This document shows positions 5,457-59,718 of a stretch of 64,000 nt of DNA, one piece after another; within the stretch, counting starts at the first letter, position 1; every line of letters begins with the position of its first letter. The notes under the pieces are model-generated. The model searched no databases. It was not told the origin of the DNA and saw only the letters and a list, made by a program, of their open reading frames with translations. The stretch spans positions 39,340 to 103,339 of the forward strand of contig JBEBRW010000010.1 in NCBI GenBank assembly GCA_040394635.1. Reading direction: 5' to 3'. Origin of the DNA: Victivallis vadensis. GTDB taxonomy: Bacteria > Verrucomicrobiota > Lentisphaeria > Victivallales > Victivallaceae. The position numbers and the translations under genes are program-made.

Positions 5457-5459
5457 ATT

Positions 5460-6854
5460 TTATCCTTTTTTGTTTGCCGGGGTGTTTTTTGCTCCGGACA
5501 TTATTTGTTGATATTTGGCGAACAATTCTTCGCCGACCTGGCTGCGGAACCATGGCTCGTGCTCATGTTCCGATTTCTCAAATTTCTTGCGGTGTTCACC
5601 CGTGAAGCCGTTTCTGCTCAACCCTTTGATTCCGATCGGAATGGTTTCGCCGGGGTATTTCCTCATGGTTTTGTCGGCAAACTTGTGCCAGAGGTCGATG
5701 TCCACGAAGTTGCCTTCGCAGGAGCGGACAATGTCGATAAACCGGTCGCGATGCCGGAAATGGCAGCCGCTGAGCGCGGTAATGCACAGGTCCTCGCGTT
5801 GATTTACCAGCCGGTGTTTTTCCAGCGGCCAGTAATAAGTCGCGTTTTTCCAGCCGAAAAGACCGGTACTGCTCCGGGCCAGTTTGACCGTTTCGGCCAG
5901 GTATTCCGGCGGATAGAAATCATCGTCCTCCATGAAGATGATGATGCCGCCGTTCCATTCCTTTAGTCCGGCCAGAAGATTTTCGCGGTGCGTGAAACGC
6001 TTTTTCGGGTCATGTTCCCGGCGGATATATTTGCAGGCGCGGGCGGGACCGACCGGCTCTTTGCCGTCATCCACCACGACCCATTGGAAATTCTGGAAGG
6101 TCTGGTTATTGAGCATTTTTTCGTGCAGGGCAAACAGCGCCTGACGGTCGCGGGTCACCGTCAGGACCGTAACTTTCGCCTCGCGGGCCGCCAGTCCCGC
6201 CAACTCCAGCGCCCGGCTCAGAAGCGGATTGAAATCCGGCACATATTCCTGCTCCGTCATGATCTTCAGCCGCTTTTCACGGATCTCCGCCGCGAATTCG
6301 GGGTCCATGGCGAAACATTCCTGTTCCGCCTGGCTCAAATTGCCGATCGCCCAGGCCCGGTGAACCGGATATCCGTGCTGGGCCTCGATCATCAGGATAC
6401 CCGCATCCGCCAGATGCTTCAGCACGCATTGCGGACAGGCCGGACGCGGGAAGCTGAAGTCCCCCGTATCGGCGCTTTTCACCGCCGCCCGCGCCGGGCG
6501 CGCATACATCCCCAGTACCGGAAGCTGCGCCGCAGGGATTCCGGCGGCCTGTTCTTCCGTCAGCACCCGGGGCCATGTCTGGGCGGAAACCCGGTTCATG
6601 ACGTCCTCGCCGAACCGTGCTTTCAGCTTTTCCCGGCTCTCTTCCGTCCATTTGATCGAGGCCAGGAACTGAATCAAATGGGCAATGATGGTTTTCCGGT
6701 GGCAGCGGCTGCAGCTTTTCAGCTTTTCGTTCATCGCGTTTACCGGGGCCTCCAGATTGGGCAGCAGCTCGGTCAGGAACCCGATGTTTCCGGTGAAATC
6801 CTGGTGTGTTTTCTCATCCAGGTTCGACAAAAATTCTTTGGTTTGCAGAGACAT
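5460..6854 (-). CDS. Two-domain protein: an N-terminal Cys-pair domain fused to a GT-A (family-2-like) glycosyltransferase domain
   Basis: The C-terminal half has VTVLTVTRDR...FQWVVVDDG and a DXD-type FMEDDDFYP motif. The N-terminal half has CSRC and CPQC pairs. Confidence 0.75.
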   Translation of the reverse strand: MSLQTKEFLSNLDEKTHQDFTGNIGFLTELLPNLEAPVNAMNEKLKSCSRCHRKTIIAHLIQFLASIKWTEESREKLKARFGEDVMNRVSAQTWPRVLTEEQAAGIPAAQLPVLGMYARPARAAVKSADTGDFSFPRPACPQCVLKHLADAGILMIEAQHGYPVHRAWAIGNLSQAEQECFAMDPEFAAEIREKRLKIMTEQEYVPDFNPLLSRALELAGLAAREAKVTVLTVTRDRQALFALHEKMLNNQTFQNFQWVVVDDGKEPVGPARACKYIRREHDPKKRFTHRENLLAGLKEWNGGIIIFMEDDDFYPPEYLAETVKLARSSTGLFGWKNATYYWPLEKHRLVNQREDLCITALSGCHFRHRDRFIDIVRSCEGNFVDIDLWHKFADKTMRKYPGETIPIGIKGLSRNGFTGEHRKKFEKSEHEHEPWFRSQVGEELFAKYQQIMSGAKNTPANKKG

Positions 6855-6864
6855 ATATCCTCCT

Positions 6865-9609
6865 TTATTCGGTCTCGAATCGATTCATAGCGGTACCGCA
6901 GTCGAAATCATCCGACCAGCTGTCGACTTCGCCGTTATAGTTCCAATATTGATAGGGCGTGGAGTTGCAGATATACTGTCCGCACCCGACATTTCCCCAA
7001 TACCCCCTGCACTGTTGGATATGGTAGTCAAGTTCGTTTAGCGGAGCGAAGGGCTCATCCACAAAGTCACATAATTCCTGGCTGGTCGCAAATCCCATTA
7101 CCAGACTTCGGATGATGGTATTGGACGAGTCACTGCTTTCGCTGTAAAAACAGTCCCCATTGCTTCCCGATCCCGAATCCGAAGCGGAGCAGCTTTCGGT
7201 ATATGGGAAACCCCGTTCCGCTTCTTTTGGCGGAATCTGATAAAAGACATAAGCTACCTGGTGATACGTGCCGCCGTTTGCCGAGGAACCTTCGCACGAG
7301 CCCGAATAACTGACGGAATAATTCGATGAACTGTAATGATCAACCCGGATTGCATAATACAAACCCTGATAATAGGCGATCATAGAATTCAACCACTTCT
7401 GATACAGAGCATTGTTCTCGTACACCCAGAGATCAATTTCATGTACCGAATCGAGAAACGGCGTCAGCCGGCGGAACTCAAATTCATACCCGTCCGGTAA
7501 CTGAAGATATCCGAATAATTCATCATTTTCCGGATCAAGAAGAGTATTGGGATTTACCGGAATCGGCACATTCAAATGATTGTCATAGGAAATAACGAAC
7601 TGATTATTTTCAATTTTCACATTGAACACTCCGATCCCATACTGTTTGCCTCCTTTCCAGGCACTTTTGTCACATTCACGATAATCGGATGACCAGTTGC
7701 AATCATAATAATGAGACCAACCGTGAGGGGTCCAGTAAGCACCATATAGCCTGGTATATTTACCATTTATATCCGGAGTTCCGTCGCCATCGCCACCGTC
7801 AGAGCCGTCACCAGTTCCATCGCCGGTTCCATCACCAGTACCATCACCAGTACCATCACCAGTACCATCGCCAGTGCCATCACCAGTGCCATCGCCAGTA
7901 CCATCACCAGTTCCATCACCAGTTCCATCACCAGTGCCGTCACCAGTTCCATCGCCAGTGCCGTCACCAGTGCCGTCACCAGTGCCATCGCCAGTGCCAT
8001 CACCAGTACCATCACCAGTACCATCACCAGTACCATCACCAGTACCATCACCAGTACCATCGCCAGAGCCGTCACCAGTTCCGTCACCAGTTCCATCGCC
8101 AGAGCCGTCACCAGTTCCGTCACTGCTGCCATCACTAGAGCCATCGCTGGAGCCATCACTGGAGCCATCGCTACTGCCATCGCTGGAGCCATCACTGGAG
8201 CCATCGCTACTGCCATCACTGCTACCATCGCTACTGCCATCACTGCTACCATCGCTAGAGCCATCACTGCTACCATCGCTAGAGCCATCACTGCTGCCGT
8301 CACTGGAGCCATCGCTTGAGCTATCACTATTGCCATCATTGCTCAATCCGCCGTAGTAATCTCTCAACCACGAGTCCTTCACCGGAATATTCGTTTTTAA
8401 CCATGGACTGTATGCTCCCGTCTTGTCTTCCTCATCTTCCGTCTCCGGGGGCCTGCTGCCATCGGGCTCCTCTTCCACCACGACACACTCACAGTCATTG
8501 ATTTTCAACGTGAAGTCGGCATAGCGGGGCATATAAGACGGTTTCTCCTTGCTCGAATTTTTCATGATCAGACGATCATAGTAAAATCCCGAATAGATAA
8601 ATAAATTCCCCTGTTCTGCCGGAATCCAGTCTTTGACGCTGGTATTGTTGCGGACATACCACTCATCGTAAACCGCCTTGCGTCTTGCCAGTTCCACCTT
8701 GTACGCTTCTTTGTCTTCTTCCGTGGCCTTTTCGCCCGGCTTCGGCAATTTATCAAACACCGGCTCGGGCTCACAGCCAAAGTCTGATGTAGTGGAAAAA
8801 ACCAGTTTTCCACTGATCGGACCGTCAAACAAATCACACACATCCGCCGCCCGGATCAGGACCGACGTTTTCTGAATCACCGTCCCCAAATCCCCCCGCG
8901 GCAAAACGTCGATTATCCCCATAGTGTGGCCCTGAAGTACCCTGTTATGAAAATTCGGAAAACTGCTCTGGGTGGCCGCGCCGCTGTAAAACCGGGCCCA
9001 GGGCGGACGCTCCTTCACCGGAATATCCCGCATTTCGCGGCTCAACTCCATGAACTCCTCCGTCGCCATCGAGGTGAACGGACAAATTTCCGAACCGCGA
9101 AATGTCAGCTGCCGGAGCTGAACCCCGAGCTCGCTGTCCACCAGCTCCCCGAAGGTATTTGCGAGAAGCCCCAGATATACCACCGCATAACATGCATGCG
9201 TACTGAAGGTCCCGTGGTTTTTCGGCTTTCTGCTCGTGAAATAGAGCCTGTCCGGCAGCCCGATGAACCTGCGGCAGCCCATTTTGGCGTTATAACGCGG
9301 ATAGTATTTCCGCAGGTGGCTGAGCCACTCCGGAGAATCCACTTTGGCCAGCTGCAGATGATACGTGCCGTCGATATGATCCAGTGGCCAGCGCAGCTCC
9401 GGGTTGCCCCAGCCCAATTCGGCATGAAATATCCCAAGTTTATCGATGCCGGACAGCGTCACCGTGGCCGAAGCGTCCTCCGTGCAGAACATTTTGCCGC
9501 ACAACGTATTGTCCACGACCGTACCGCCTCCGCCGCCGCCGGAATCGGATAATTCGTCTTCCTCATTGCGGCACGGACATTTTTTCGCTTTCAATGGTAC
9601 CAGCCTCAT
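6865..9609 (-). CDS. Large Cys/Tyr/Trp-rich tail-associated protein with a central (SSDG)n(TGDG)n low-complexity linker
   Basis: A 914-aa ORF in the tail operon, 1 nt downstream of the preceding gene's stop. The repeat tract spans aa ~424-610. Confidence 0.8.
7780..8340 (-). repeat. 12-nt-period tandem repeat (coding) encoding tetrapeptide units
   Basis: About 561 nt. From tract length I estimate roughly 18 SSDG-type units (8121-8340) and 28 (T/S)GDG-type units (7780-8120). Five identical 12-mers (caccagtaccat) occupy 8001..8060. Elsewhere the units differ at synonymous positions. Confidence 0.95.
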
Positions 9610-14051: not shown

Positions 14052-15200
14052 ATGACTCTCTACACCTACAGCTTCCAGGAAAAACGCCGCGACCTCTCCG
14101 ACATCCTCTCCACCGTGATCAAGAATGAACCCCGCTTCATCTCCTGCTTCAAACGCGTGGGCGACGCCACCCAGCAGAAACACGAGTGGCTCGAGGATCA
14201 GATCGCCGGCCGTTCCGTGACCGTGCAGTCCGTCAGCACCGGCGTCATCACGCTCTCCGCTGCCGACGCCGCCAAGGTCAAGGTCGGCACGCTGCTGGTG
14301 ATCAAAGACGATTCGGCCCTGTTCCGCATCGCCCAGATCAACAGCGCCACCACCTTCACGCTGGCCAAAGTCGCGGCCAACGGCTCAACCACGGCCGCTC
14401 CGGCCGCAGGCGCCGTCATGAACATCGTCAGCACCCCGATCGCGGAAGGCAGCGCCACCGGCGAAGGCGAAGAAACCTCGCACCTCTCCGATACCGCGTA
14501 CAACTGCACCCAGATCTTCCGCAAAGACATCGTGATCACCGGCTCGGCCCTGGCCATCAGCGTGGCCGGCAATGTCGACAACCAGCTGAACCGCCAGACC
14601 AATTTCGCCCTCGGCGAACTCTCCCGCGACCTGAATCGCGTGGCGCTCTTCGGCCGCCGTACCGAAAACACGGTCGCGGCCCGCGGTGAAATCGGCGGTC
14701 TCTACTACTTCACCGAAAACAGCGCGCTGAAGATCAATGCCAACGGCTCGATCATCGACAGTTTCATGATCAACGACGGTGCCCAGGCCGTCCTCGGCGA
14801 AGGCGGTGTTCCCACCCAGATCCTCTGTTCGCCCGGACAGGCCCGCGTGCTCTCCAACGAGTACAAGAACCGCCTGCAGATCGTCCGCTCCGACGACGCC
14901 CGCGGCGCCTATGTCGCCGTCATCATCAATGAAAGCAACGGCAGCACCATGACCATCATGGCCGATCCGGACGTACCGGACACCGAAGCCTGGGTGAACG
15001 ACGTCAACGGTTTCGGACTCTCGAACCTGCACGGCCGCGCCATCAGCGACCAGGATTCCACCCCGAAGGGCTTCGACGGCGTCAAGCGCATGGCCCTCGG
15101 CGAGCTGACGCTGGAGTTCAAGAACGCCCACCAGCGCCTCTGCCGCATCTACGGCCTCAAGCCGAGTGCCCAGGCCCTGGCCGCGCTCCGCTCCGAATAA
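14052..15200 (+). CDS. Major capsid protein candidate (382 aa)
   Basis: The call rests on size, an Ala/Gly/Thr/Ser-rich composition, its position after a scaffold-like gene, and the strong hairpin right after its stop. The N-terminal KHEWLEDQ region recalls SU10/DUF5309-type capsid proteins (memory only). Confidence 0.7.
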   Translation: MTLYTYSFQEKRRDLSDILSTVIKNEPRFISCFKRVGDATQQKHEWLEDQIAGRSVTVQSVSTGVITLSAADAAKVKVGTLLVIKDDSALFRIAQINSATTFTLAKVAANGSTTAAPAAGAVMNIVSTPIAEGSATGEGEETSHLSDTAYNCTQIFRKDIVITGSALAISVAGNVDNQLNRQTNFALGELSRDLNRVALFGRRTENTVAARGEIGGLYYFTENSALKINANGSIIDSFMINDGAQAVLGEGGVPTQILCSPGQARVLSNEYKNRLQIVRSDDARGAYVAVIINESNGSTMTIMADPDVPDTEAWVNDVNGFGLSNLHGRAISDQDSTPKGFDGVKRMALGELTLEFKNAHQRLCRIYGLKPSAQALAALRSE

Positions 15201-16688: not shown

Positions 16689-18803
16689 ATGATTAAACCG
16701 GCAGAAGATATCCGCAGACTTGACGACCGTTTCTTTGACGAAACGGAGCAGCCCGCCGTGGAAATTCCCCTTGAGGAATTCATGGAAGAATACGAGGCAG
16801 TGAGCTACCGCGAAGTCGGCGAAATCACCGACATTCCCGATATCGTCACCCCGACCCGCGATTTCTTCGCCGAAACCGGTCCGCTCGCCAAATCCGCCAT
16901 GGCCGGCAACCGCCCCTACGAACACCGCCCGCAGCAGACCGATATGGCGATCAATACCGCCATGGCGCTGCAGGGCCGTTACAACCTCTGCGTGGAGGCC
17001 CCCACCGGCGTCGGCAAAAGTTTCGCTTATCTGATCCCCGCCATTCATTTCGCCAAGACCCAGACCTGCCCGGTGGTCGTCTCCACCGAAACGATCAACC
17101 TGCAGGAACAGCTGGTCGAAAAAGATATTCCGTTTTTAAGCGACGTCACCGGCATCGAGTTCCGCGCCGCCCTGGCCAAGGGCCGCAGCAACTATCTCTG
17201 CCAGCGCCGTTTGCACATGGCCTCGTCCGAACATCAGGACCAGCTACTGCCGCTGGCCTCGCTGGTGCTGGATCTCGAGCGCATGGCGCACTGGCTCGAC
17301 AAAGGCGGCACCGGCGACCGCGACGACATCAATTTCCGCTATGACCCCATCGCCTGGAGTTACTGCTGCTGCGAGGCCGGCAACTGCATGGGCAACAAAT
17401 GCGCCTATTTCCGCAGTTGTTTCTACTGGAAGGCCCGGATGGAGTGGGAAAAGGCCGACATCATCGTGACCAACCACGCCATGTTCTTCACCGATTTGAA
17501 GATGAAGCAGGACGTCAGCCTCGACATGACACTGCTCCCCAAGTGGAGCGCCGTCATCATCGACGAGGCCCACACGCTCGAGGACAGCGCCGCTTCGCAC
17601 CTCGGCCTGCGGGTATCCAGCGGCGGCTTGCAGGGCTTCCTGAACCGTCTCTTCAACCCCGACAACGGGCGCGGCATCCTGCTGCGCAAGGGCGAGGAAG
17701 CGATGAACCTGCGCAAGATCATCGCCGAGCTCAAACCGCAGACCAGCGCCTTCTTTTCGCTGTTCGAAAACATGCTGGCGGAGAAAAACGATTCCGTTTA
17801 CCGCGTCCATACTCCGAAAATGGTGCCGAACCTGCTCGCCGCCGGCCTCGGCCGCCTCCGCAACGCCCTGGCGGCATTTGCCGAAATCCAGGAGGAAGAC
17901 AAAAACTTCAAAACCGAGCTCGAGGCCCAGGTCAGCCGCTGCGACGCCTTTATCGACGGCATCGATGCCTTTATCGACATGGCTTATCCCGAGCACGTCT
18001 ATTGGATCGAGGAGGAAAAAGGCGGCGTAACGCTGCAGGGCGCCCCCCTGAACATCCCGGAACTGCTCGAACAAATCCTGTTCCACAAACGCTACCCGGT
18101 GGTCCTGACCAGCGCCACGCTCACGGTCCGGCGGACCTTCGACTATTTCCGCTCGCGCACCGGCTTTATCAACGGCACCGAATTGAGGCTGGATTCGCCG
18201 TTCTCGCCCGATCAGGTGCGGCTCTATATCCCGCGCTCGATGCCGGAGCCGAACCACGACGATTACAAAGACGCGCTGGTGCAGCAGATTCCGCGCTTCC
18301 TGGACGTGACCCACGGCAAGGCGTTCGTGCTGTTCACCAGTTACCAGCTGCTGCGCCACTGCGCGGAAAAACTGCGCTATTATTTTGACGAAAGAGGCAT
18401 CGCGCTCCTCACCCAGGGCGAAATGAACCGCACGCAGATGCTGCGCGAATTCAAAAACGACATTGACTCGGTGATCTTCGGCACGGACAGTTTCTGGACC
18501 GGTGTCGACGTACCGGGCGAAGCCCTCAGCAACGTGATTCTGACCAAATTTCCGTTTGCCGTGCCGTCACACCCGCTGATCGCCGCCCGCTGCGAGCGCA
18601 TCGAAAAATCCGGCCAGAGCGCCTTCATGGAATACAGCCTGCCGGAAGCGGTGCTGAAGTTCCGCCAGGGCATCGGCCGACTGATCCGCAGCAAGGACGA
18701 CACCGGCATCATCGTGATCCTCGACCGACGCGTCATCTCCAAACGCTACGGCCAGATGTTCATCGAATCCCTGCCCCCCTACCCCGTCGAATACGTCAAC
18801 TAA
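16689..18803 (+). CDS. dinG: DinG-family ATP-dependent DNA helicase (Fe-S, XPD-like)
   Basis: Walker A VEAPTGVGKSF, DEAH box IIDEAHTLED, and a Cys cluster (CCCEAGNCMGNKCAYFRSC) between the motifs. 704 aa. Confidence 0.9.
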   Translation: MIKPAEDIRRLDDRFFDETEQPAVEIPLEEFMEEYEAVSYREVGEITDIPDIVTPTRDFFAETGPLAKSAMAGNRPYEHRPQQTDMAINTAMALQGRYNLCVEAPTGVGKSFAYLIPAIHFAKTQTCPVVVSTETINLQEQLVEKDIPFLSDVTGIEFRAALAKGRSNYLCQRRLHMASSEHQDQLLPLASLVLDLERMAHWLDKGGTGDRDDINFRYDPIAWSYCCCEAGNCMGNKCAYFRSCFYWKARMEWEKADIIVTNHAMFFTDLKMKQDVSLDMTLLPKWSAVIIDEAHTLEDSAASHLGLRVSSGGLQGFLNRLFNPDNGRGILLRKGEEAMNLRKIIAELKPQTSAFFSLFENMLAEKNDSVYRVHTPKMVPNLLAAGLGRLRNALAAFAEIQEEDKNFKTELEAQVSRCDAFIDGIDAFIDMAYPEHVYWIEEEKGGVTLQGAPLNIPELLEQILFHKRYPVVLTSATLTVRRTFDYFRSRTGFINGTELRLDSPFSPDQVRLYIPRSMPEPNHDDYKDALVQQIPRFLDVTHGKAFVLFTSYQLLRHCAEKLRYYFDERGIALLTQGEMNRTQMLREFKNDIDSVIFGTDSFWTGVDVPGEALSNVILTKFPFAVPSHPLIAARCERIEKSGQSAFMEYSLPEAVLKFRQGIGRLIRSKDDTGIIVILDRRVISKRYGQMFIESLPPYPVEYVN

Positions 18804-50453: not shown

Positions 50454-52835
50454 TCAGGGTTTGGCGAGCACTTCAAGCCGCACCAGGCCTTTTTTGAAGT
50501 CGATGCGGCGCTGGATTGTCACGGCCTCATCGGAGTCGAGCGTCAGCGGCTGGGCTTCCCCCAGCCGGGACATGCCGCTTTGACTCAATGTAGCGCCCCG
50601 GCCCCAGAACCTCAGCCGGATCGCCTCCCGCGCGAGCCACTCACTGCCCCCGCTCTCGTCAATCACGTCACCGGTTTCAACGCGATAACTGTCATGCTTC
50701 GATGTCGTCGGCGTCATGACCAGAGGAAACAGCATTGTTTTCCCCGCGAGTTTGCCGGTAACCAGGTACTGAAAACCCGCCGCCGGCTTGTATCCGCCCC
50801 TCGGGCGCTGCTCCGGTTCAAAACTGCGCTCCACCTCGAACCGCAGCAAACCGTCTTCGCCAGGTTCTCCGGTAAACTCAATCGTCCACAGCATTTCCGG
50901 CGGGAAGTTCTCCGGCGCGGCCTTGTAAAGTTTCATCGCGCACCCCGACCATTCCCGGGTTCCCTTCAGCTCCTGCAACAGCTTGCCGGCTTCTTCCGCC
51001 GCCGCCCGGCGGGCGTCGTCCTTCAACTTGCCGAGCTCGGCCAGGCGCGCTTCAAATGCCAATTTCTTCTCACTGTCGCCCTGATACTGAACCTCAAAAA
51101 CAAGCTGCTTTTTATCCGGTTGAACATGACTGAAAACCGTCATTGCATAATTCTCCGTCAAACCATTGTCTTCGGAGTCGACCCGCCGGGTTCCCCAGGA
51201 GTACGGCCAGAACCGTTCCACCTGCGAACCGAATTTTTCACGTCGGAATCCGATCACCTGCATATCCCTGCCCAGGTTTTCGAGGGTCACGCCGTAGTGG
51301 CTCGAGCCGTCGTACTGCCGAATGAATTGCCCGGGATGCTCCGGGTCCGGCAACACCCCGACATTCAACAGCAAATCCCGAAACCTCTCCTTCTCAAACC
51401 GCAGCACAAAGACTTTGCGAAACTTGGTGACGTCCGCCAGCGGCAGCTCGACGACTTCCCGGGCCGTACCCGCCGCCGGCAAAGTAATGATGCACAAGCG
51501 GTCCCCCAGCGCCGCATACAAATCATTCCGCAATGTTTCCCATTTCTCGCTGAACTGAAAAAGCGAACTGATGTAACTATTGTAATTGAGGTCGCCCTGA
51601 TAATCGGCCACCACATCATTGGCGAGGCGGCGGAACTCCGCACCGACTACCGGCATGAGCTCCGCCGATGATCCCGCCGTTTCCAGCGCCCGCAGCCGGA
51701 GCGCCGCGGACGGCTTCGGCTGCAGCGCGAAGAATTTTTCCGCCAATTCGCGGCGCTCCTTCAAGTCTTTCACACCACTCAGCCCGCGCGACAGAACGAA
51801 GACCCGCAAATCGTTTTCCCGCAGCCAATCAGCCAATTCCGCGCCGAAATCGGGTATGCCCGGCCTCCGCCAAACGACCAGAGCCTGCGAGAACTCGATC
51901 GGAGCACCGTCGATGCCATAACGTTTCTGACCGGGTATCCGCCACCAGTACAACTCTGCCCCGCTTTCACCGTACGGTTTGCTCTCGAAAATACGAATAT
52001 CGTTCTGGTATCTCATTTCGTTCAGCAGCAAGCCACGCTCCGCCAGCGCAGCGCTCACCGCCGCCAGGTCGCTCTCCCAATTGCCTTTGGTAAACGTGTA
52101 CAACTCATCGCTTTCGCCATTGATGTCGTCTGAGGACACCAGCTTGCGCCACCCGGCCACGCCCGGTACTTCCAAATCATCATCGGATAAAAGCGCCGGA
52201 CGGAAACGTTCGGGAATTTCCGGCAACCGGACCGCATCGGGACCACGGAAACGCCCCAATGCAGGATTCAGCTTCTCCACGATATCGCTCGCCACCCGCT
52301 TGACCCCGGCTTCGTCCGAATCCCGGCTGACCATGGTTATGATCATAAAATTGTACTCAAAGTCCGGCATGGCAATATAGCGGCCCCGGCCTGAGTGTAA
52401 ACTGTCCGGCCGCAGCAGGCGCAGCATGTAGGCCGGTTTGCCGTTATAAGTTTTCTCCGTCTCCGGCGAAAACATGCTTGCCCGCGGCCTCACGACCGGC
52501 CCCATCTCCTGGTTCGTGAACAGGCCGCGCCCGAGCCAGAATGCGATTGCCCGTTTGCGGTCGTAAGATTGAGCCGGCGCACCGTAGGGGATCACCTCAC
52601 ACGGCTGGGGCAGTTCCTGCGCCAGGGCGGCGGCCACCGCCGCCGTTTCCGGCCCCGGTGACCCGGCCAGAATGTATATTTTCTCGAGATAAGGGGTGAT
52701 CTGGTCCCCCCTGCCCCAGGAAAATGTGGTCGAAACCGTCACCGGTGGTGCAGCCTCCGGGACGTCGGAGCATACCCCGGCCCCGCTTGCAATCACCGCC
52801 ACGACCACGGCCATCAGTTTAAAATAACGCTTCAT
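50454..52835 (-). CDS. Large secreted hypothetical protein (793 aa)
   Basis: Signal peptide MKRYFKLMAVVVAVIASGAGVC. Normal composition. The + strand overlapping ORFs are Arg/Pro-rich artefacts. Confidence 0.75.
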   Translation of the reverse strand: MKRYFKLMAVVVAVIASGAGVCSDVPEAAPPVTVSTTFSWGRGDQITPYLEKIYILAGSPGPETAAVAAALAQELPQPCEVIPYGAPAQSYDRKRAIAFWLGRGLFTNQEMGPVVRPRASMFSPETEKTYNGKPAYMLRLLRPDSLHSGRGRYIAMPDFEYNFMIITMVSRDSDEAGVKRVASDIVEKLNPALGRFRGPDAVRLPEIPERFRPALLSDDDLEVPGVAGWRKLVSSDDINGESDELYTFTKGNWESDLAAVSAALAERGLLLNEMRYQNDIRIFESKPYGESGAELYWWRIPGQKRYGIDGAPIEFSQALVVWRRPGIPDFGAELADWLRENDLRVFVLSRGLSGVKDLKERRELAEKFFALQPKPSAALRLRALETAGSSAELMPVVGAEFRRLANDVVADYQGDLNYNSYISSLFQFSEKWETLRNDLYAALGDRLCIITLPAAGTAREVVELPLADVTKFRKVFVLRFEKERFRDLLLNVGVLPDPEHPGQFIRQYDGSSHYGVTLENLGRDMQVIGFRREKFGSQVERFWPYSWGTRRVDSEDNGLTENYAMTVFSHVQPDKKQLVFEVQYQGDSEKKLAFEARLAELGKLKDDARRAAAEEAGKLLQELKGTREWSGCAMKLYKAAPENFPPEMLWTIEFTGEPGEDGLLRFEVERSFEPEQRPRGGYKPAAGFQYLVTGKLAGKTMLFPLVMTPTTSKHDSYRVETGDVIDESGGSEWLAREAIRLRFWGRGATLSQSGMSRLGEAQPLTLDSDEAVTIQRRIDFKKGLVRLEVLAKP

Positions 52836-52998
52836 GACGCCTCCTTGCTTGTTCTCCTATACAAGAATTATAATAATCACCGTTTTACATAAAATCAATA
52901 CGCCGCTGAATAAAATTGGTAATTTATAGATTGATTTTTTGCGCCGAGGCTGTACGTTAATTGCAGAGTAAATTGTGATCCAAACAAGGCAGGGTATT

Positions 52999-54048
52999 AT
53001 GAAAATTTCCATATTGGCGGCGTTATTGCTGGTATCACCGGTGCTGTTTGCACAGCAGGGCGGGGAGAAAATCCGGGTGGCGGTCCTTGATTTCACCACC
53101 ATCGATGTCGAGGGACAGAAGCGGTTCCTGAACCATCAGAATCAGCGAATCGACATCCCCCGCGAATCGACGCTGAACATGGCCGACCACCAGACCATGA
53201 ACAGCATCATGCAGGGCTATGTGCGGATGATCGATGCATGGGATAATTCCGAAACCAACACCGCCAACCGCATCGCGCAAATTCAGAACAACGACCGCGA
53301 ATACGCCAAAACGCTGGAACTCTACCGGATCGTGGTCAAGGGCGAAATGCGCCCGGTCGTGATCGGCGCGGAATACCTCTCCGCCTATCTGGGCAAGCAC
53401 AACGATGTCTTCGCCCCGGTCGACGCCAAGCTGGTCGGAGTCGCCATGGAGAAGCTTGCTGCGCAAAGTGATTTCCCGAAAGATTTCATGCGTAAACTGG
53501 CGGAAGAAAGCGGCGCCACCCACCTGATTTACGGCACCGTGTCCGACATGCGGACCAAGGAAGGCATCTTCAAGGGCTACGGCATCGAAACCCGGTCGCT
53601 GAATTACCAGCTCGACGTCATTCTGAAGGTCGTGGATTTGCGTTCGCAGAGCGTCTGCTACAGCAATATGTACACCGGTACTTACCGCGAGCAGCTCAAG
53701 CCGGGCGCGGTAACCATCGACCACAATAAATTCCAAACCCTGATGACTTCCGCGTTGGAACAAGCCTCCGAAGACATTTACGAGCACGCCAAGCCGGGCC
53801 CGGAGAGCTTGATCAAGGTCCACGTGCCCCCGGTCCGGGTCATCTTCGCCGTCGACGGCGGCAAGGGTTTCAAGCCGGATACCGCCATGATCTACCTGAA
53901 CGGGCAGCAGATCGGCGACTCCACCCGTATTTTCGATATTCTCCCCGGCACTTACCGGATCGAGATCAAGGCCCCCGGCTACAAAACCCAAGCCCTCGAG
54001 GCCACTATAAACGCCGATCAGGCGATCAAGGCCACGCTTGAAAAATAG
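52999..54048 (+). CDS. Secreted LpoB/CsgG-like domain protein with a C-terminal PEGA-like domain (operon gene 1)
   Basis: The ATG at 52999 gives the signal peptide MKISILAALLLVSPVLFAQQ. IRVAVLDFT strand motif. The C-terminal LPGTYRIEIKAPGYKTQ is PEGA-like. Confidence 0.75.
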   Translation: MKISILAALLLVSPVLFAQQGGEKIRVAVLDFTTIDVEGQKRFLNHQNQRIDIPRESTLNMADHQTMNSIMQGYVRMIDAWDNSETNTANRIAQIQNNDREYAKTLELYRIVVKGEMRPVVIGAEYLSAYLGKHNDVFAPVDAKLVGVAMEKLAAQSDFPKDFMRKLAEESGATHLIYGTVSDMRTKEGIFKGYGIETRSLNYQLDVILKVVDLRSQSVCYSNMYTGTYREQLKPGAVTIDHNKFQTLMTSALEQASEDIYEHAKPGPESLIKVHVPPVRVIFAVDGGKGFKPDTAMIYLNGQQIGDSTRIFDILPGTYRIEIKAPGYKTQALEATINADQAIKATLEK

Positions 54049-54059
54049 GAGAACGTTTT

Positions 54060-55058
54060 ATGTTGAAAAAAATTCTGACCGCACTATTTTCCTGCACCCT
54101 GCTGACGCTGGCCGCCGCCGATAAAATCGCCGTGGTCGAACCGGTCGCCAAGGGCGGCGTGAGCCCGCAGGAAATCGAAGCCGTATGGGGCATGCTCGAA
54201 GCCAATATCGGCGGCAATTTCGAAATCATTTCCCGCAGCGCCATCAAGCAGATGCTGACCGAAATCGGCTTCACCGATACCTCCGAGCTGGCCAACCCGA
54301 ACTCCACGCAAAAGGCCAAACTGGGTGAAATCAAAACCGTCAAATACCTCCTGGTGTCGGAAATCAACCGCTTCGGCACCCGTTACAATGTCAATATCTC
54401 GGTGGTGGATTCCTCGACCGGCACACTGGACCCGGACAAGCGCGGCTCCGTCACCGTCGCCAGTTTCGATGAACTGAGCGACAAGCTTACCGACACGCTG
54501 CGCGAGATGGGGCTCGGCCGCCCGGTGGCCCTGTCCGGCCGCGGCGCGCTGCTCGTACCGGTCATCAAACAGGCCAATTCGCCGAAGTACCTGAACGACG
54601 AACTCAATGACCGCCTGCAGGAAATCCTGCTCGATAACGGCATCCGGCTCTACCAGCTGCAGAACATCCGCAAGATCCTGACCACGAACAAAATCGGCAA
54701 TCTCGACGAAGCCGAGCCCGCCATGTATGCCCGGGTGGGCGAACTGCTGCGGGCGGACTACCTGATCCAGCCGGAAATCACCAGATACGACACGCGCATC
54801 AGCAAGGTTTTCGTCAAGGCCTCCAACCGCACGGTCACCAAGTGCATCGGCGACATGAACGGCAGCGTCAAGATCATCAATGCCAAAACTGGCGACATGA
54901 TCGCCAGCGTCACCTTCCGCAACCGGATCGATTTCGGCGATATCAACGACGACACCTCCGACTGGACCGCCGAAGATTACGGCAACTACCTGATCGAAAA
55001 CACCCTCAAGCCGCTTGCCCCGAAAGTTCTGGAAAAGCTCAAGGCCGTGGAGAAATAA
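54060..55058 (+). CDS. Secreted protein with two LpoB/CsgG-like half domains (operon gene 2)
   Basis: Signal peptide LTLAAADK. KIAVVEPVAKG and a second GALLVPVIK module. RBS AGGAGA. Confidence 0.75.
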   Translation: MLKKILTALFSCTLLTLAAADKIAVVEPVAKGGVSPQEIEAVWGMLEANIGGNFEIISRSAIKQMLTEIGFTDTSELANPNSTQKAKLGEIKTVKYLLVSEINRFGTRYNVNISVVDSSTGTLDPDKRGSVTVASFDELSDKLTDTLREMGLGRPVALSGRGALLVPVIKQANSPKYLNDELNDRLQEILLDNGIRLYQLQNIRKILTTNKIGNLDEAEPAMYARVGELLRADYLIQPEITRYDTRISKVFVKASNRTVTKCIGDMNGSVKIINAKTGDMIASVTFRNRIDFGDINDDTSDWTAEDYGNYLIENTLKPLAPKVLEKLKAVEK

Positions 55059-55067
55059 ATCTTCGCT

Positions 55068-56522
55068 ATGAAATGCCGGACCGTCATCTTGCTGACTCTG
55101 GCCGCCGGATCATTCATCTGGAGCGGCTGCTCCAGTGTTGTCAACTCCCATCTGCAAAAAGAAACCATGATGACGGGTTACATGAACGGCAATACCGACC
55201 TTGTGCTCAAGGAGATCGACAGCAAGCTCAAGTCCACCTCCGGCACCGGCGATGAACTGATGTGGGTACTGGAGGCCGGCAGCATGAACTTCAACCTCCG
55301 CAATTACCCGGCCAGCATCGAATATTTCCGCAAGGCCGAGCAACTGGTCACGGAGTACGACGACCGCGCCATGATCAGCCTGCGTGACAGCGGCTCCGAG
55401 GCCCTCATGGCCGTGACCAACCTCAATGCCCTGCCCTACCGCGGGTTCTGCCGCGACCGGATTCTCCTTTCATTCTTCAAGGCCCTCGCCTACCTCGGCG
55501 AAAACAACGAGGAGGCGTTCAGCGCCCAGCTCCGCCGCATGCGCGACGAGCAGAAAAAAGTCATGGAGGATTACCAGAAATTTTTCGACGCCGAACAGGA
55601 GGCCGTCCGCCAGACCCGCGCCGACAACCGGGACGTGGCCAAAGCCCTCAATTCCACCAATGAGAAAACCATCACTTCCAATGTCGACAACCAGGAATTC
55701 ATGAGCGCCCTGAATCAGACGAAGCAAATCGCCAACCATGCCTACGGCGATTTCCTCAATCCGGCGGCGCTCTTTCTCTCCGCGCTCGGCTCGCTCCGCG
55801 ACAATCTTTATGATAATGCCGTCATCGACTTCCGCCGCTTCTACGAAGCCATGCCGGCGAATCCGCTCGCCCGCCAGTATTATGTCACCGCGCTGAAACT
55901 GGCCGGACAGGAAGTTCCGGCGGAACTGGCCCAGGTCCCGCCATTCGATTTCCCGCTGAACTCGGATTGCGTCCACGTGATTTTCGCCAACGGGCGCGGC
56001 CCGGCCTTCCGTCAGGTCGCCATTTACCTGCCGGTGATGACCGCCTGGCCCGTCTGCGAATACTATCAGAGCCCCTACAGCCGCTTCCGGGTAATCGCCG
56101 GCGGCAAGGCTTACGACAGCGTGCAGATCGCCGACATGGACGCGATTATTTCGCAGGAGTACAACCAGCGGCTGCCGGGCATGATCACCCGCATCGTCAT
56201 CAGTACCGCCATCAAGGAAGCGGCGCACTATACCGCCACCGCGCTGGCGGCGCATGAGGATGAACTCGCGGGCGCGCTGGTTTTCGCCGGCGGGCTCATT
56301 TACAAAATGATCTTCAATACCGCCGACACCCGCAGCTGGGAAATCCTGCCGAAGGAATTCCAGCTGACGCAGTTTCCGATGCCGCCCGGCCGCAAATTCG
56401 TCATCGAAAGCCCCTACCGCGAGATCACCCTGCCGGAGAATTACCGCTCCGCCATTATCTATGTAAATACCCCGAGCCGGGGATTTTCCACCGTAAATGT
56501 TTTCGGATTTAACTCAAAATAG
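55068..56522 (+). CDS. TPR-like lipoprotein of unknown function (operon gene 3)
   Basis: Lipobox IWSGCSS, 484 aa, helical N-terminal half. It resembles the large lipoprotein that precedes YcfL/LpoB-like genes in other bacteria (memory). Confidence 0.75.
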   Translation: MKCRTVILLTLAAGSFIWSGCSSVVNSHLQKETMMTGYMNGNTDLVLKEIDSKLKSTSGTGDELMWVLEAGSMNFNLRNYPASIEYFRKAEQLVTEYDDRAMISLRDSGSEALMAVTNLNALPYRGFCRDRILLSFFKALAYLGENNEEAFSAQLRRMRDEQKKVMEDYQKFFDAEQEAVRQTRADNRDVAKALNSTNEKTITSNVDNQEFMSALNQTKQIANHAYGDFLNPAALFLSALGSLRDNLYDNAVIDFRRFYEAMPANPLARQYYVTALKLAGQEVPAELAQVPPFDFPLNSDCVHVIFANGRGPAFRQVAIYLPVMTAWPVCEYYQSPYSRFRVIAGGKAYDSVQIADMDAIISQEYNQRLPGMITRIVISTAIKEAAHYTATALAAHEDELAGALVFAGGLIYKMIFNTADTRSWEILPKEFQLTQFPMPPGRKFVIESPYREITLPENYRSAIIYVNTPSRGFSTVNVFGFNSK

Positions 56523-56531
56523 GAGAAAGAT

Positions 56532-56990
56532 ATGAGAAAGTACTGTTTATTGCCGGCTTTGGCCCTGTTGGCGCTGGTCCTTCCGGGCTGTCAGGATTCC
56601 GTAAACGCGGTAGAGGCGGAAAACAAGACCATGACGGTCAACACGATTTCGGACACACGCTATGTGACCGACAGTTTCCTGCGTGACCGCCTGCGCCTGA
56701 CCGGCGTCAATGTCTCGGAAACGCCCGAGGGGCTGATGCGGGCGCAGCTCACTGCCGTAAACGTCCGTACCGGCGTCCTCGCCCAGGCCTGGAGCTCCCT
56801 GACCAACGACAATCCGTATAAGGTCCAGTACAAATTCACCTGGTTCGACCTGAACGGCATGGAAGTGCCGTCCATCGTCTCGACCTGGCACGACCGCCAG
56901 ATCATTCCCGGTGAAACCGTCCAGTTCCAGTCCGTGGCCCCGCGCAAGGACTGCAAAGATTTTCGTATTGAACTCAAAGAAGCAAAATAA
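56532..56990 (+). CDS. YcfL-like (DUF1425-type) lipoprotein (operon gene 4)
   Basis: Lipobox LPGCQD, about 150 aa. The pattern YKVQYKFTWFDLNGMEV...W....I.PGETV.F.SVAP is YcfL-like. Confidence 0.7.
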   Translation: MRKYCLLPALALLALVLPGCQDSVNAVEAENKTMTVNTISDTRYVTDSFLRDRLRLTGVNVSETPEGLMRAQLTAVNVRTGVLAQAWSSLTNDNPYKVQYKFTWFDLNGMEVPSIVSTWHDRQIIPGETVQFQSVAPRKDCKDFRIELKEAK

Positions 56991-57003
56991 GGAGGCCCGA
57001 ACC

Positions 57004-57651
57004 ATGAGAAACCCCGTATACCTGATTGCATTTGTCCTGTCCGCCGGGCTGCTGGCAGGCTGCAGCAGCACCAAAACCGAAACCTACAACCCGGGCAATC
57101 CCTCGGAGAGCAAGGTTCGCGCCATCGGCACCGTGTCGTACGCCGAATGCTACGAGGCCGCCCGCGCCTCGGCCCAGAGCGCCCTCACCAGCCCGAATTT
57201 CACCCGCTTCCTCTCCCAGTACCGCACGGAAAAAGCCGACCAGAACGCCATTCCGCTGATGCAGGTCGGTTACCTGAAAAACCAGACCCGCGATCCCGAT
57301 CTGCAGATGAATCTGGTTACCGACGAGCTCTGCACGGCGCTGATGAATTCCGGTTTAGTCGATATCACGCTGGCCACCGGCCGCGACGTCTCCCAGACCT
57401 TTGCCGACGCCCGCGACCTGAAAAACGACCCGAACTTCAACAAATCCACCGTGGCCCCGAAGGGCACACTGGAAGCTCCCCGGCTGAGCATGGAAGGCGC
57501 CATCATCTCCAACACCACCACCGAGGGCGGCACCACCGAGCAGGTCTATACCTTCAACCTCCGGATCGCCGACATCCAGACCGGTCGCGTGATCTGGTCG
57601 GACAACCAGAAGTTCGGCACCCGGAAAACCCGCAGCGTGGTCGGCTGGTAA
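57004..57651 (+). CDS. LpoB-like lipoprotein (operon gene 5)
   Basis: The ATG at 57004 follows AAGGAGG. Lipobox LLAGCSS. Motifs are LMQVGYLKNQT, LVTDELCTALMNSG, LEAPRLSMEGAI and the final IADIQTGRVIWS. Confidence 0.7.
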   Translation: MRNPVYLIAFVLSAGLLAGCSSTKTETYNPGNPSESKVRAIGTVSYAECYEAARASAQSALTSPNFTRFLSQYRTEKADQNAIPLMQVGYLKNQTRDPDLQMNLVTDELCTALMNSGLVDITLATGRDVSQTFADARDLKNDPNFNKSTVAPKGTLEAPRLSMEGAIISNTTTEGGTTEQVYTFNLRIADIQTGRVIWSDNQKFGTRKTRSVVGW

Positions 57652-57666
57652 GGCCGGGAGGTTCAT

Positions 57667-58452
57667 ATGAAAGCGTTATTTGCGATCATTCTGGCGGCGG
57701 CGGGGTTCATTCTCGCCGGCTGCAACAACAGCGCCAATTTTGATTACGCCGGTACCGCCGGCCCGATGATCAAAGTGTCGGGCAACACCGGCAAGAGTGT
57801 GGCGGTGCTGCCGTTCATGGACCAGCGCGGGCTCAAATACATCGATCCCTCGCTCCAGGCCGAAGCCAAGGACTACCCCTATGGCGACACCGGCTCGCTG
57901 TGGTTCGGCATCATCCCGCTGATGCCGTTCGGCTGGATCGGCAAGGAAGAACCGGAAAGCAGTACCGACTTCATTTCACTCGGTTATTTCCACGCCAATC
58001 CCTCGCAGGACCTGGCCGCCGCCGCCGAACTCAGCTTGAAGTATTCCAATATGTTCAACCGTGTGACCGGCGTCCCCAGCGCGTCCAAAGCGGATACCGA
58101 CTACATCTGGCAAGGCAGTTTCTCCAACCTGCATTACAGCGGCGTCATGTTCTCCTATTGCGTGACCTATATCGGCGCGCCGGTGTTCTGGCTGCTCGGC
58201 GCCCCGATGGGCTACTCGCGCAATGAATTGTGGGTGGATTTCGCCCTGATCGAACGCGAGAGCGGCAAAACTGTCTGGACCTACCGTTACCGCGACAAGG
58301 ACTACGTGGTGCACTGGATTTACGCCCGCATCGGCAAAGACGCCAGTCTCTACGCCCAGCTGATGCGCAAGGCCATGAATGCCGCGCTCTACGACCTGAA
58401 CCAGAAATATCTCCCGCTTTCCACGGTTCAACATCTCCCGTCCAAGCTTTAA
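57667..58452 (+). CDS. Lipoprotein of unknown function with an LpoB/CsgG-like N-terminal strand motif (operon gene 6)
   Basis: Lipobox ILAGCNN. SVAVLPFMDQ motif. Confidence 0.7.
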   Translation: MKALFAIILAAAGFILAGCNNSANFDYAGTAGPMIKVSGNTGKSVAVLPFMDQRGLKYIDPSLQAEAKDYPYGDTGSLWFGIIPLMPFGWIGKEEPESSTDFISLGYFHANPSQDLAAAAELSLKYSNMFNRVTGVPSASKADTDYIWQGSFSNLHYSGVMFSYCVTYIGAPVFWLLGAPMGYSRNELWVDFALIERESGKTVWTYRYRDKDYVVHWIYARIGKDASLYAQLMRKAMNAALYDLNQKYLPLSTVQHLPSKL

Positions 58453-58467
58453 CCCTGCTTATTACTC

Positions 58468-58510
58468 ACCGGCCCCGGTTGTTTTTTCAGCCGCGGCCGG
58501 TTCTTTTTTT
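58468..58510 (+). terminator. Rho-independent terminator of the lipoprotein operon
   Basis: ACCGGCCCCGG-N12-CCGCGGCCGGT (an 11-bp stem with one mismatch), followed by TCTTTTTTT. Confidence 0.65.
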
Positions 58511-58531
58511 CTTATTTTTTCATTTGTCCTA

Positions 58532-58560
58532 TTGACAACTGGCGGTTTTTCGGTTATAAT
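58532..58560 (+). promoter_or_regulatory. Consensus sigma70-type promoter TTGACA-17-TATAAT
   Basis: Both hexamers are perfect (58532..58537 and 58555..58560) with a 17-nt spacer, 55 nt upstream of the regulator ATG. Confidence 0.6.
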
Positions 58561-58614: not shown

Positions 58615-59718
58615 ATGGCAGAAACATTATTTGAAGAGAGTCGCCGGTATATCCTCGAAAAGATGCGTGGCATCCTGCGCGAGGGCGGACGGAAAATGCC
58701 GACCGAAAAGGAGTTGGCCGGGGAAATGTTCGCCAGTTATGCCACCATCCGGCTGGTAATGGGCGAGCTGGAGCGCGAGGGATTCATCCGCAAAATCCGC
58801 GGCTCCGGCACTTATCTTGAACCGGGCGCGACGGAGCTTCTGGAGCGCGCCTCCCTCGTCCGGCTGCGGCTTTTCAGCTCGCCGCTCACCGGAACACCCG
58901 ACAACGATTATGCCGCTTATCTGGTCGACGAACTGACGCGCCGGGCCGGGGAAAAACGCTTCCGGGTGGAGCACCGCCAGGTGGCTACTCACGACGCCTT
59001 TCTGGCCGAGCTCGACAAGGAAGCGGGCTCCTGCGATCCGGTCATCTATCTCCCGCCGACCGAAGCGTTTACGATGCAGCAGCTCGGCAGGCTCGGCCGT
59101 TTCGACCGCCTTCCGCTGGTGGTTATCGACTGCGAGCTCGGCAATATCAATGTCAACAACATCACCACCGACAACCGCAAGGGCGGAATGCTGGCTGCGC
59201 GCATGCTGCTCAATAGCGGCTGCCGCAAACTGGCGCTGCTGCTGTGCGAGCCGCCGCTTCGCCAGATCTCCCAGCGTGTTCAGGGATTCACCGAAATCGC
59301 GGAACTGGCCGGTGTGGATGTCGAAATCTGGGACTGCGAAGTCCGGGTAAACGACGACCGTGCCGCGCTGGCACGACAGAAGACCCTGACGGCCCTGCGG
59401 GCGGGACACCGCCCGGACGGCATTTTCGCCGTCTCCGACTCGGGGGCCATCAGCGCGGCCGCGGCCATTCGCGAATCAGGTTTCGAGCCCGGCCGGGAAA
59501 TCGCACTGATCGGTTTTGACGGTCTTCCCGCGACGCGGAAGCACACCCCTTCCCTCGGGAGCATCGCGCAGCCGGTCACCGAAATCGGCGAAGAGATTTT
59601 CGCTCTCCTCGAGACCTGGCAACCGGGAATGCATATTCAGAAATTGCTCTCTCCGCGCTTCCAGGCCGGAGTATCATTGACCAAAAAAGAAGAAGCCATG
59701 TTGGCCCTTCCAACTTAA
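58615..59718 (+). CDS. GntR-type HTH fused to a LacI/PBP1-type sugar-binding domain (transcriptional regulator)
   Basis: [42 protein letters not shown]. The remainder resembles a periplasmic-binding-protein type I fold (VVIDCELG..., [13 protein letters not shown]). Confidence 0.8.

Follow-up and report, generated by a model that had tools for sequence, protein, structure and literature searches.

A six-gene operon of exported proteins built around a YcfL–LpoB-type lipoprotein triad in Victivallis vadensis

As a regulator of cell-wall synthesis, LpoB is textbook knowledge, but for enterobacteria only. Here, we describe an operon of six genes (G1 to G6; 52999–58452, + strand) in Victivallis vadensis, in which an LpoB-family protein is one of six exported products. 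The operon lies in a 64,000-nucleotide stretch of contig JBEBRW010000010.1 (assembly GCA_040394635.1, positions 39,340 to 103,339), hereafter the window. A preliminary description, made from the letters of the window, had named two related loci, and both exist as it stated. One is the adjacency of ycfL and lpoB in Escherichia coli, where the order ycfL-lpoB-thiK is seen; the other is a lipoprotein triad of Campylobacter. G4 and G5 belong to the YcfL and LpoB Pfam families and follow each other in the same order as in E. coli. Unlike the window, however, the E. coli locus has no gene of the COG3014 family, to which G3 belongs, and hinT precedes ycfL. Aeromonas displays an intermediate arrangement (locus L095), in which COG3014, ycfL and lpoB genes are followed, at the position of thiK, by a phosphotransferase gene of the APH family, which includes thiamine kinase.

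The complete triad has been published as the Campylobacter jejuni lipoprotein operon cj0089-cj0090-cj0091 (PMC3100323). Cj0089 is a tetratricopeptide repeat (TPR) lipoprotein similar to TPR proteins of Shewanella; on cell fractionation it is recovered with the inner membrane, and Cj0091 with the outer one (PMC3100323). A cj0091 mutant adheres less to INT 407 cells and colonizes chicks more weakly at an early stage (PMC3100323). The Helicobacter counterparts are HP0018, which would correspond to G3, and HP1457. Deletion of hp0018 produces chains of outer-membrane vesicles and alters cell shape, with loss of the helical form; HP0018 forms foci, and two peptidoglycan hydrolases, AmiA and MltD, co-immunoprecipitate with it (PMC11394524). 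The triad in the window resembles that of Campylobacter in the order of its products, namely a TPR lipoprotein of about 450 aa, a DUF1425/YcfL-like lipoprotein with an Ig fold and an LpoB-like lipoprotein. In addition, the G4 family profile matches the crystal structure of Cj0090 (4GIO; E = 2.6e-6). In contrast to the Campylobacter operon, the triad in the window is preceded by the soluble CsgG/FlgT-like proteins G1, which carries a PEGA domain, and G2, and it is followed by G6; its host is a non-flagellated bacterium of the Planctomycetes–Verrucomicrobia–Chlamydiae (PVC) group.

The triad is already known from Campylobacter. No description of the five-gene form in the PVC group, of the six-gene form in Lentisphaerae or of the G6 family was found in the literature searched. 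Publications on COG3014, on the function of DUF1425/YcfL and on LpoB-like and CsgG-like ring systems contained nothing that describes the six-gene set, and the sole mention of COG3014 was an incidental one in a Vibrio phage-host predictor. The COG3014 family is by itself large, with more than 2400 distinct clusters at 50% identity, but is nearly devoid of annotation, and neither its members nor YcfL carry a functional assignment. The loci described below show that an LpoB-like protein normally travels in an exported set of three to six proteins, which recasts LpoB as a single component of a larger, ancestral envelope module.

Layout and conservation of the operon

Six open reading frames (ORFs) on the + strand tile 52999–58452 in the ORF list of the window. 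The successive gaps between them measure 11, 9, 9, 13 and 15 nt, which bears out the preliminary description of six same-strand genes spaced by 9–15 nt. Its statement that each gene has its own ribosome-binding site also holds, with purine-rich motifs before the starts (AGGAGAA, GGAGAAA, AGGAGAA, AAGGAGG and GGGAGG) and a weaker one before G1. G1 and G2 carry ordinary cleavable signal peptides (MKISILAALLLVSPVLFAQQ in G1), and G3 to G6 carry the lipoboxes WSGC, LPGC, LAGC and LAGC, respectively, all as proposed. The +2 residues of the four lipoproteins are Ser (G3), Gln (G4), Ser (G5) and Asn (G6), and Asp occurs at none of these positions. An intrinsic terminator (58468–58511, +) follows G6, composed of a 13-bp GC-rich hairpin (58468–58501) and then UCUUUUUUU. 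The hairpin has a ΔG of -24.6 kcal/mol and a z score of -6.6, and none of 200 shuffled sequences was equally stable, so the clear terminator noted earlier is confirmed. On the other side, a divergent intergenic gap of 163 nt (52836–52998, +) separates the start of a minus-strand 793-aa ORF, which ends at 52835, from the ATG of G1. This gap presumably holds the promoter and 5´ untranslated region of the operon; the σ70-like matches in it are weak only (9/12). Each of the six genes is present only once in the window.

The six-gene arrangement is real and far beyond chance. The same order of genes recurs in dozens of other Lentisphaerae genomes, with differing neighbors where these were inspected. 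The scan used one genome per species and yielded 80 loci, all from Lentisphaerae or unclassified genomes except one labeled Verrucomicrobia. Presence was counted by iterative profile searches on the ORFs of those loci that had enough flanking sequence. G5 was found in 73/73 loci, G4 in 70/73, G2 in 56/69, G1 in 47/69 and G6 in 35/70, and the order G3-G4-G5 was kept in 70 of 73 Lentisphaerae loci. Among 59 loci with both flanks intact, 28 contain the complete set in the order of the window, 14 lack G6 but carry G1 to G5, and 7 consist of the triad alone. G3 of the window is 38–68% identical to its counterparts at the other Lentisphaerae loci with the same gene order, and the nearest relatives of both G3 and G6 are encoded in Lentisphaeria/Victivallales metagenome-assembled genomes (MAGs), mostly from gut and rumen. 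Variants of the cluster carry one or two additional G5 paralogs in the downstream slot, or G6 upstream on the opposite strand. At L002 and L004, the loci inspected in detail, the flanking genes differ from those of the window, which indicates that the gene unit is conserved and not its neighborhood. Co-occurrence of the six families, which the preliminary description had named as a test of itself, is thus strong for five genes and only partial for G6.

The conserved five-gene form spans Lentisphaerae, Verrucomicrobia and Planctomycetes. A Limisphaerales (Verrucomicrobia) contig (L091) encodes in succession a PEGA protein, a CsgG/FlgT_C protein in which the FlgT_C match is weak, a COG3014 protein, a DUF1425 protein, LpoB and a Gly-zipper protein. 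A Candidatus Brocadia contig encodes a TPR+PEGA protein, a CsgG protein, COG3014, DUF1425 and LpoB. The counterpart of G2 in Verrucomicrobia and Brocadia is a 301-aa CsgG protein. In a metagenome scan seeded with this CsgG-like protein, COG3014, DUF1425 and LpoB genes lie downstream in 43 of 44 loci and a PEGA protein gene lies upstream in 50 of 53; G6 was not seen in these loci. The expansion of the triad to six genes, as claimed earlier, is present in the window; the five-gene form is not special to this genome, and G6 is an optional addition.

The triad is shared by Proteobacteria, Campylobacterota, Verrucomicrobia, Planctomycetes and Lentisphaerae, and the lineages that carry it include free-living and environmental ones (anammox bacteria, Azospirillum and members of peat, soil and lake communities sampled as metagenomes). 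In Ruficoccus, the triad stands by itself. On Azospirillum plasmid p1 (L094, 7397–9998), the genes next after the triad encode a DUF6844 protein and a protein of 402 aa, one segment of which is weakly LpoB-like. G3 matches the gene product at the same position in Azospirillum with E = 2e-14 over 96% coverage and that in Aeromonas with E = 2e-9. The exported product encoded in the downstream accessory slot varies by lineage and is G6, a G5 paralog, a Gly-zipper protein or a DUF6844 protein. The Aeromonas locus is from NZ_AP026896.1, a 4.9-Mb Aeromonas caviae replicon that is filed as a plasmid in PLSDB and is almost unannotated; it is evidently a chromosome.

Products of the six genes

G3 (55068–56522, +; 484 aa) is a lipoprotein of the family that NCBI, where it names the relatives of G3, calls 'COG3014 family protein'. 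It has no match in Pfam or NCBIfam. The AlphaFold2 (AF2) monomer model (predicted local distance difference test, pLDDT, 83) places TPR-like helices at residues 27–278, consistent with the TPR module that had been proposed among the products, and β-strands at 301–356 and 430–481. A conserved and rather hydrophobic helical hairpin (357–416) interrupts the β-rich C-terminal domain. The hallmark motif of the family is N-x-A-D-T-R-x-W-x-x-L-P-K-E-F, and Cys21 (the lipid Cys), Asn231, Pro328, Asp420, Arg422 and Trp424 are invariant across diverse members. Sequence-profile searches of the PDB gave no meaningful match beyond generic TPR, and Foldseek with the full model against the PDB found generic TPR proteins only. 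An exhaustive profile search returned 2450 cluster representatives at 50% identity with E ≤ 1e-3 (327 with E ≤ 1e-30), most of them full-length at about 460–500 aa. Residues 103–122 (window 55374–55433) form the segment of lowest confidence in the model (pLDDT < 50; the next block reaches 65), and they overlap the start of a highly conserved motif, T-N-x-N-A-L-P-Y-R-G-x-x-R-D-R (residues 117–131); this region may fold only upon partner binding. Two 731-aa proteins from metagenome assemblies (P0307 and P0493) join a COG3014 protein to a C-terminal SurA_N-like chaperone domain (residues 573–691, E = 2e-10), which could point to a link with outer-membrane protein handling or could be a fusion made by assembly or gene calling.

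G4 (56532–56990, +; 152 aa) is a small lipoprotein with an Ig-like β-sandwich. The earlier assignment as YcfL-like agrees with its Pfam match to DUF1425/YcfL (PF07233; 55.1 bits against a cutoff of 28.3, E = 7.5e-15), and the family profile also matches PDB entry 3o0l with E = 8e-10. The lipid Cys is invariant in the family alignments of G3, G4 and G5.

G1 (52999–54048, +; 349 aa) and G2 (54060–55058, +; 332 aa) are secreted, soluble periplasmic proteins without lipidation. G1 consists of a CsgG/FlgT_M-like α/β domain at the N-terminus and a PEGA β-sandwich at the C-terminus. The PEGA-like C-terminal domain described for G1 is confirmed by Pfam (PF08308, residues 293–347; 27.8 bits against 20.8), and its FlgT_M match is weak (14.8 bits against a cutoff of 31.2). 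Among 26 G1 orthologs, PEGA matches in 13, CsgG in 4 and FlgT_M in 3. G2 comprises two tandem CsgG/LpoB-like α/β domains. Residues 201–288 match model positions 60–150 of 210 in CsgG (PF03783; 30.2 bits against 20.8, E = 3.5e-7). CsgG matches occur in 24 of 27 G2 orthologs, with a best E of 5e-16, and a few orthologs match FlgT_M, LpoB or FlgT_C. The ortholog alignment displays a signal peptide of the type cleaved by signal peptidase I, and the Cys in the signal peptide of the window's G2 is not conserved, so that G2 is not a lipoprotein. The α/β domains of G1 and G2 are core-sized, each about 130–170 aa, and to judge from this length they would be too short to hold the two transmembrane hairpins of CsgG. 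In two independent MAGs, G1 and G2 are a single ORF (L089, 7016–8977; L090, 1518–3680) of 653 and 720 aa, respectively, which is classic evidence of a physical or functional link. G6 lies upstream on the opposite strand at both fusion loci. Alignments of G1 with G2 by hhalign (probability 99.6%) were disregarded as an artifact of the presence of the two fusions in the G1 alignment. The hhalign match of G2 to G5 is weak (probability 19%), and single-sequence searches of the PDB gave no match for G1, G2 or G5.

G6 (57667–58452, +; 261 aa) is an accessory lipoprotein for which Pfam, NCBIfam and sequence searches of the PDB gave no match. The AF2 monomer model, built from an alignment of 52 sequences, has a pLDDT of 90.2 and a predicted template-modeling score of 0.86. 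Its top Foldseek match is 8z5n (the LPHT ring chain of Vibrio), followed by 2iqi (XCC0632, PqiC-like), and further matches are HpaA, the CsgG pre-pore (4uv2), FlgT (3w1e) and the PelC dodecamer; the best matches have E values of 7e-6 to 1e-4 and TM-scores of 0.3–0.6, and the TM-score against CsgG is only 0.35–0.45. G6 and the G5 family are remote relatives (hhalign probability 96%). The model, together with this alignment, upholds the proposal of a CsgG/LpoB-type α/β fold for this product and indicates that G6 is a new sequence family with a modeled CsgG/PelC/FlgT/PqiC-type fold, within the α/β fold of outer-membrane lipoproteins that is also found in LptE, PelC, CsgG and PqiC (PMC13631591). 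Two conserved hydrophobic, aromatic-rich insertions (about 76–92 and 157–180) are modeled with lower confidence. The second-best match recalls the rings associated with MCE systems, since 2iqi is among the PqiC-like structures and PA3214 and PqiC form octameric rings (PMC13631591); unlike those systems, the operon and the examined neighbors include no MCE (PqiB-like) or PqiA-like gene.

Homologs of G6 (n = 112) are almost all from Lentisphaerae, and the distant ones stand alone, outside the cluster. At L009 (6442–7215 and 8896–11217), and likewise at L010, a gene for a class A penicillin-binding protein (PBP) with a weak UB2H match is found some 1.7 kb away from a G6 homolog of 31% identity; the two are on opposite strands, and three other genes separate them. 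No class A PBP gene neighbors the other distant homologs (L006 to L008). A role of G6 as an essential pore was considered, and 'essential' was rejected because half of the Lentisphaerae loci, and every Verrucomicrobia/Planctomycetes-type locus seen, lack G6.

G5 (57004–57651, +; 215 aa) is an outer-membrane lipoprotein of the LpoB family, as had been suggested. Pfam LpoB matches it with E = 1.3e-25 (90.5 bits against a cutoff of 22.3), and the G5 family profile matches the LpoB structures 4q6z and 2mii with E of about 1e-6 and PelC (5t11) with E = 5e-3. The first β-strand of E. coli LpoB (SVLLVDSVNNRT) aligns with PLMQVGYLKNQT in G5, and the N-terminal strand motifs listed in the preliminary description do correspond to the first β-strand of the CsgG/LpoB-type fold. 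G5 is nevertheless probably not a PBP1B activator of the E. coli type, to judge from its sequence, because its equivalog score is too low, its linker is only half as long and the position of Glu201 is occupied by Arg. The NCBIfam LpoB equivalog (TIGR02722) scores 96.0 bits against a cutoff of 110.55, and identity to E. coli LpoB is 18%. The spacing from the lipid Cys to the alignment column of E. coli Tyr82 is 30 residues in G5 and 26–30 residues in all triad-type proteins examined, as opposed to 61 Pro-rich residues in E. coli. The function of E. coli LpoB needs this long linker. Affinity maturation and mutagenesis have identified Ser157, Ala164, Tyr178, Ser180 and Glu201 of E. coli LpoB as PBP1b contacts, with E201R as a non-binding control (PMC12279963). 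The corresponding residues in G5 are Thr, Leu, Asn, Thr and Arg; the column of Glu201 is reliably aligned, flanked as it is by the invariant Gly200 and Trp204, and the loop positions are less reliable at 18% identity. A co-evolved interface between G5 and a PBP partner is conceivable.

A candidate envelope assembly and its alternatives

We tentatively favor a reading in which the six products are components of a single periplasmic assembly at the inner face of the outer membrane. This assembly would serve envelope maintenance, either by coupling the outer membrane to peptidoglycan or by positioning peptidoglycan-remodeling enzymes, and we regard it as a substantial possibility rather than a probability. 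The reading is based on six exported products, a tight operon, co-inheritance at the scale of phyla and the G1-G2 fusion, together with a TPR hub, two β-sandwich modules and a fivefold occurrence of a ring-forming fold. Five α/β domains of the CsgG/PelC/FlgT/PqiC/LpoB fold group are present (one each in G1, G5 and G6, and two in G2), and most structurally characterized members of this group assemble into rings or disks beneath the outer membrane (PMC13631591, PMC11756786). A role in the envelope is suggested by the hp0018 phenotype, the co-immunoprecipitation of AmiA and MltD and the regulation of a peptidoglycan synthase by E. coli LpoB.

In such an assembly, G3, G4 and G5 would be the ancient core, and lipid anchors would hold G4, G5 and G6 beneath the outer membrane. 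G3 would act as the hub, with a TPR groove rich in conserved polar residues that binds partners and a C-terminal domain that, with the hydrophobic helical hairpin, docks to a membrane or another partner. The soluble G1 and G2 would oligomerize under the lipoproteins, in the way that FlgT lies beneath FlgO and FlgP in the Vibrio H-ring. The whole would couple the outer membrane to peptidoglycan, or position or regulate peptidoglycan-remodeling enzymes, and would not be a secretion pore. The Vibrio H-ring and the FlgP disk of Campylobacter and Helicobacter likewise combine soluble proteins of the FlgT/CsgG fold with lipoproteins of the same fold group (PMC11756786). The likeness extends to the Foldseek matches of G6 to 8z5n and FlgT and to the FlgT_M and FlgT_C matches in G1 and G2 orthologs. 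Unlike in the flagellar systems, however, the FlgT scores in Pfam are below their cutoffs, as for G1, and ring formation by these products is hypothetical; no flagellar genes occur among the neighbors examined around the cluster.

Several observations count against an assembly of this kind. Complex formation is inferred purely from genomics, and both AF2 models are of monomers. Pfam finds no peptidoglycan-binding domain (OmpA_C, LysM, SPOR or AMIN) in the six products. The equivalence of G3 to Cj0089 and HP0018 is deduced from position, architecture and the homologies of G4 and G5. In Campylobacter, Cj0091 was read as an adhesin, and no adherence or colonization phenotype was reported for a cj0089 mutant (PMC3100323). 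The fractionation of Cj0089 with the inner membrane means that the assembly may span the periplasm rather than lie only under the outer membrane. Two MAGs carry two copies of the cluster each (L034 and L044 in JBEBXH01; L026 and L083 in URKJ01), which is odd for a single housekeeping machine. Within each pair, G6 or additional G5 paralogs are confined to one of the two copies, and the copies may represent specialized paralogous systems. The preliminary description had pictured an outer-membrane-anchored complex of several lipoproteins; this picture suits the four lipoproteins G3 to G6 and does not suit G1 and G2, which are soluble, and the anchoring of G3 is uncertain, given the Campylobacter fractionation.

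A true LpoB function would offer another account of the locus, with G5 extending from the outer membrane across the peptidoglycan to activate a class A PBP of the PBP1B type and the other five products modulating or localizing this activation. The Pfam match and the profile matches to the LpoB crystal and NMR structures are in its favor, as are the Aeromonas synteny that ties the triad to E. coli ycfL-lpoB, the LpoB label that NCBI gives to an Azospirillum triad member and the one distant G6 homolog beside a class A PBP gene. Set against them are the subthreshold TIGR02722 score, the low identity, the missing long Pro-rich linker that spans the periplasm and the changed contact residues, with the Arg of G5 equal to the published non-binding substitution. 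Moreover, the triad also occurs in Campylobacter, for which no such role was reported in the literature examined. We consider this account improbable. The same grade applies to an outer-membrane export apparatus resembling CsgG/PelC, of a type VIII-like or polysaccharide type, in which G6 and/or G2 would form the channel or funnel and G3 a scaffold like PelB. The α/β core, the frequency of CsgG matches in G2 orthologs, the fold matches of G6 to the CsgG pre-pore and the PelC dodecamer, the two aromatic-rich insertions of G6 and the pairing of a TPR protein with a PelC-like one, which recalls PelB/PelC, would suit such an apparatus. However, G1 and G2 lack a lipid anchor, the CsgG match of G2 covers only part of the model, their domains leave no room, by length, for the transmembrane hairpins, and G6, the only lipoprotein of CsgG size, is dispensable in many relatives. 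Comparison of the window with L002, L004 and L091 to L095, the flanking genes of which differ, also revealed no conserved β-barrel partner, substrate gene, glycosyltransferase or CsgE/F-like gene beside the cluster, and no csgE, csgF or curlin genes were found among the operon products or scanned neighbors. Of the roles offered in the preliminary description, activation of PBP1B in the E. coli manner and a CsgG-type pore are therefore each weakened.

The six genes might instead be merely co-transcribed, with their products doing separate jobs in the envelope and sharing no common complex. The optional G6, the variable downstream slot (G5 paralogs, Gly-zipper or DUF6844) and the absence of G1 or G2 at some loci would be expected in that case, but a gene order fixed over phylum-level distances, the 9–15 nt gaps, the G1-G2 fusion and the linkage seen in 43/44 and 50/53 metagenome loci make it quite improbable. 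PEGA domains are found in surface-layer-type proteins, and this, with the adherence and colonization defects of the cj0091 mutant, would agree with lipoproteins that are exposed at the surface and act as adhesins or antigens, the role proposed for Cj0091, and with the operon as a locus for attachment to a host or substrate. Surface exposure of Cj0091 has never been shown, the protease tests being inconclusive (PMC3100323); furthermore, the triad occurs in free-living and environmental lineages and its closest structurally characterized relatives are periplasmic. Attachment is thus very improbable as the function of the operon.

E. coli LpoB appears to be one specialized descendant of the trio. 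A wider proposal, which we consider rather unlikely as a whole, is that the triad is the core of an ancient, flagellum-independent machine of diderms, ring- or disk-like or trans-envelope in form. The FlgT/CsgG-like periplasmic subunits G1 and G2 would have been retained in the PVC group and G6, as a CsgG-like lipoprotein that associates with the membrane, in Lentisphaerae, and both the activation of PBP1B by LpoB and the flagellar H-ring and basal-disk proteins would be specialized offshoots of this older system, which organizes the envelope. The module of three to six proteins may account for the vesicles and altered shape of Helicobacter hp0018 mutants and for the colonization phenotype of Campylobacter cj0091 mutants. 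The six products, including the fusion-supported G1-G2 pair, provide a parts list for interaction studies and cryo-electron tomography.

Genes surrounding the operon

The gene downstream of the operon encodes a GntR/periplasmic-binding regulator (58615–59718), which was considered as a controller of the operon and rejected: the terminator lies between them, and the regulator gene has its own perfect σ70 promoter match (-35/-10) at 58532–58560, past the terminator. In addition, a GntR-type regulator lies on the other side of the cluster in L002 and does not adjoin it in L004. The divergent 793-aa protein upstream (50454–52835, - strand) is secreted, has zero Pfam matches and is not located beside the hexad in L002 or L004. 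The window also contains a prepilin-type N-methyl protein and glycan-utilization-like genes near the operon, in keeping with an origin in Lentisphaeria/Victivallales. Farther away, an ORF at 14052–15200 (+) matches the SU10 major capsid protein (E = 1e-46). The ORFs near it (4401–9609, - strand, and 16689–18803, + strand) include a collagen-repeat protein (4401–5456), a GT2-domain protein, a 914-aa protein without a Pfam match and a DEAD_2/Helicase_C_2 helicase. This capsid-like region of the window may be a prophage or the remnant of one.

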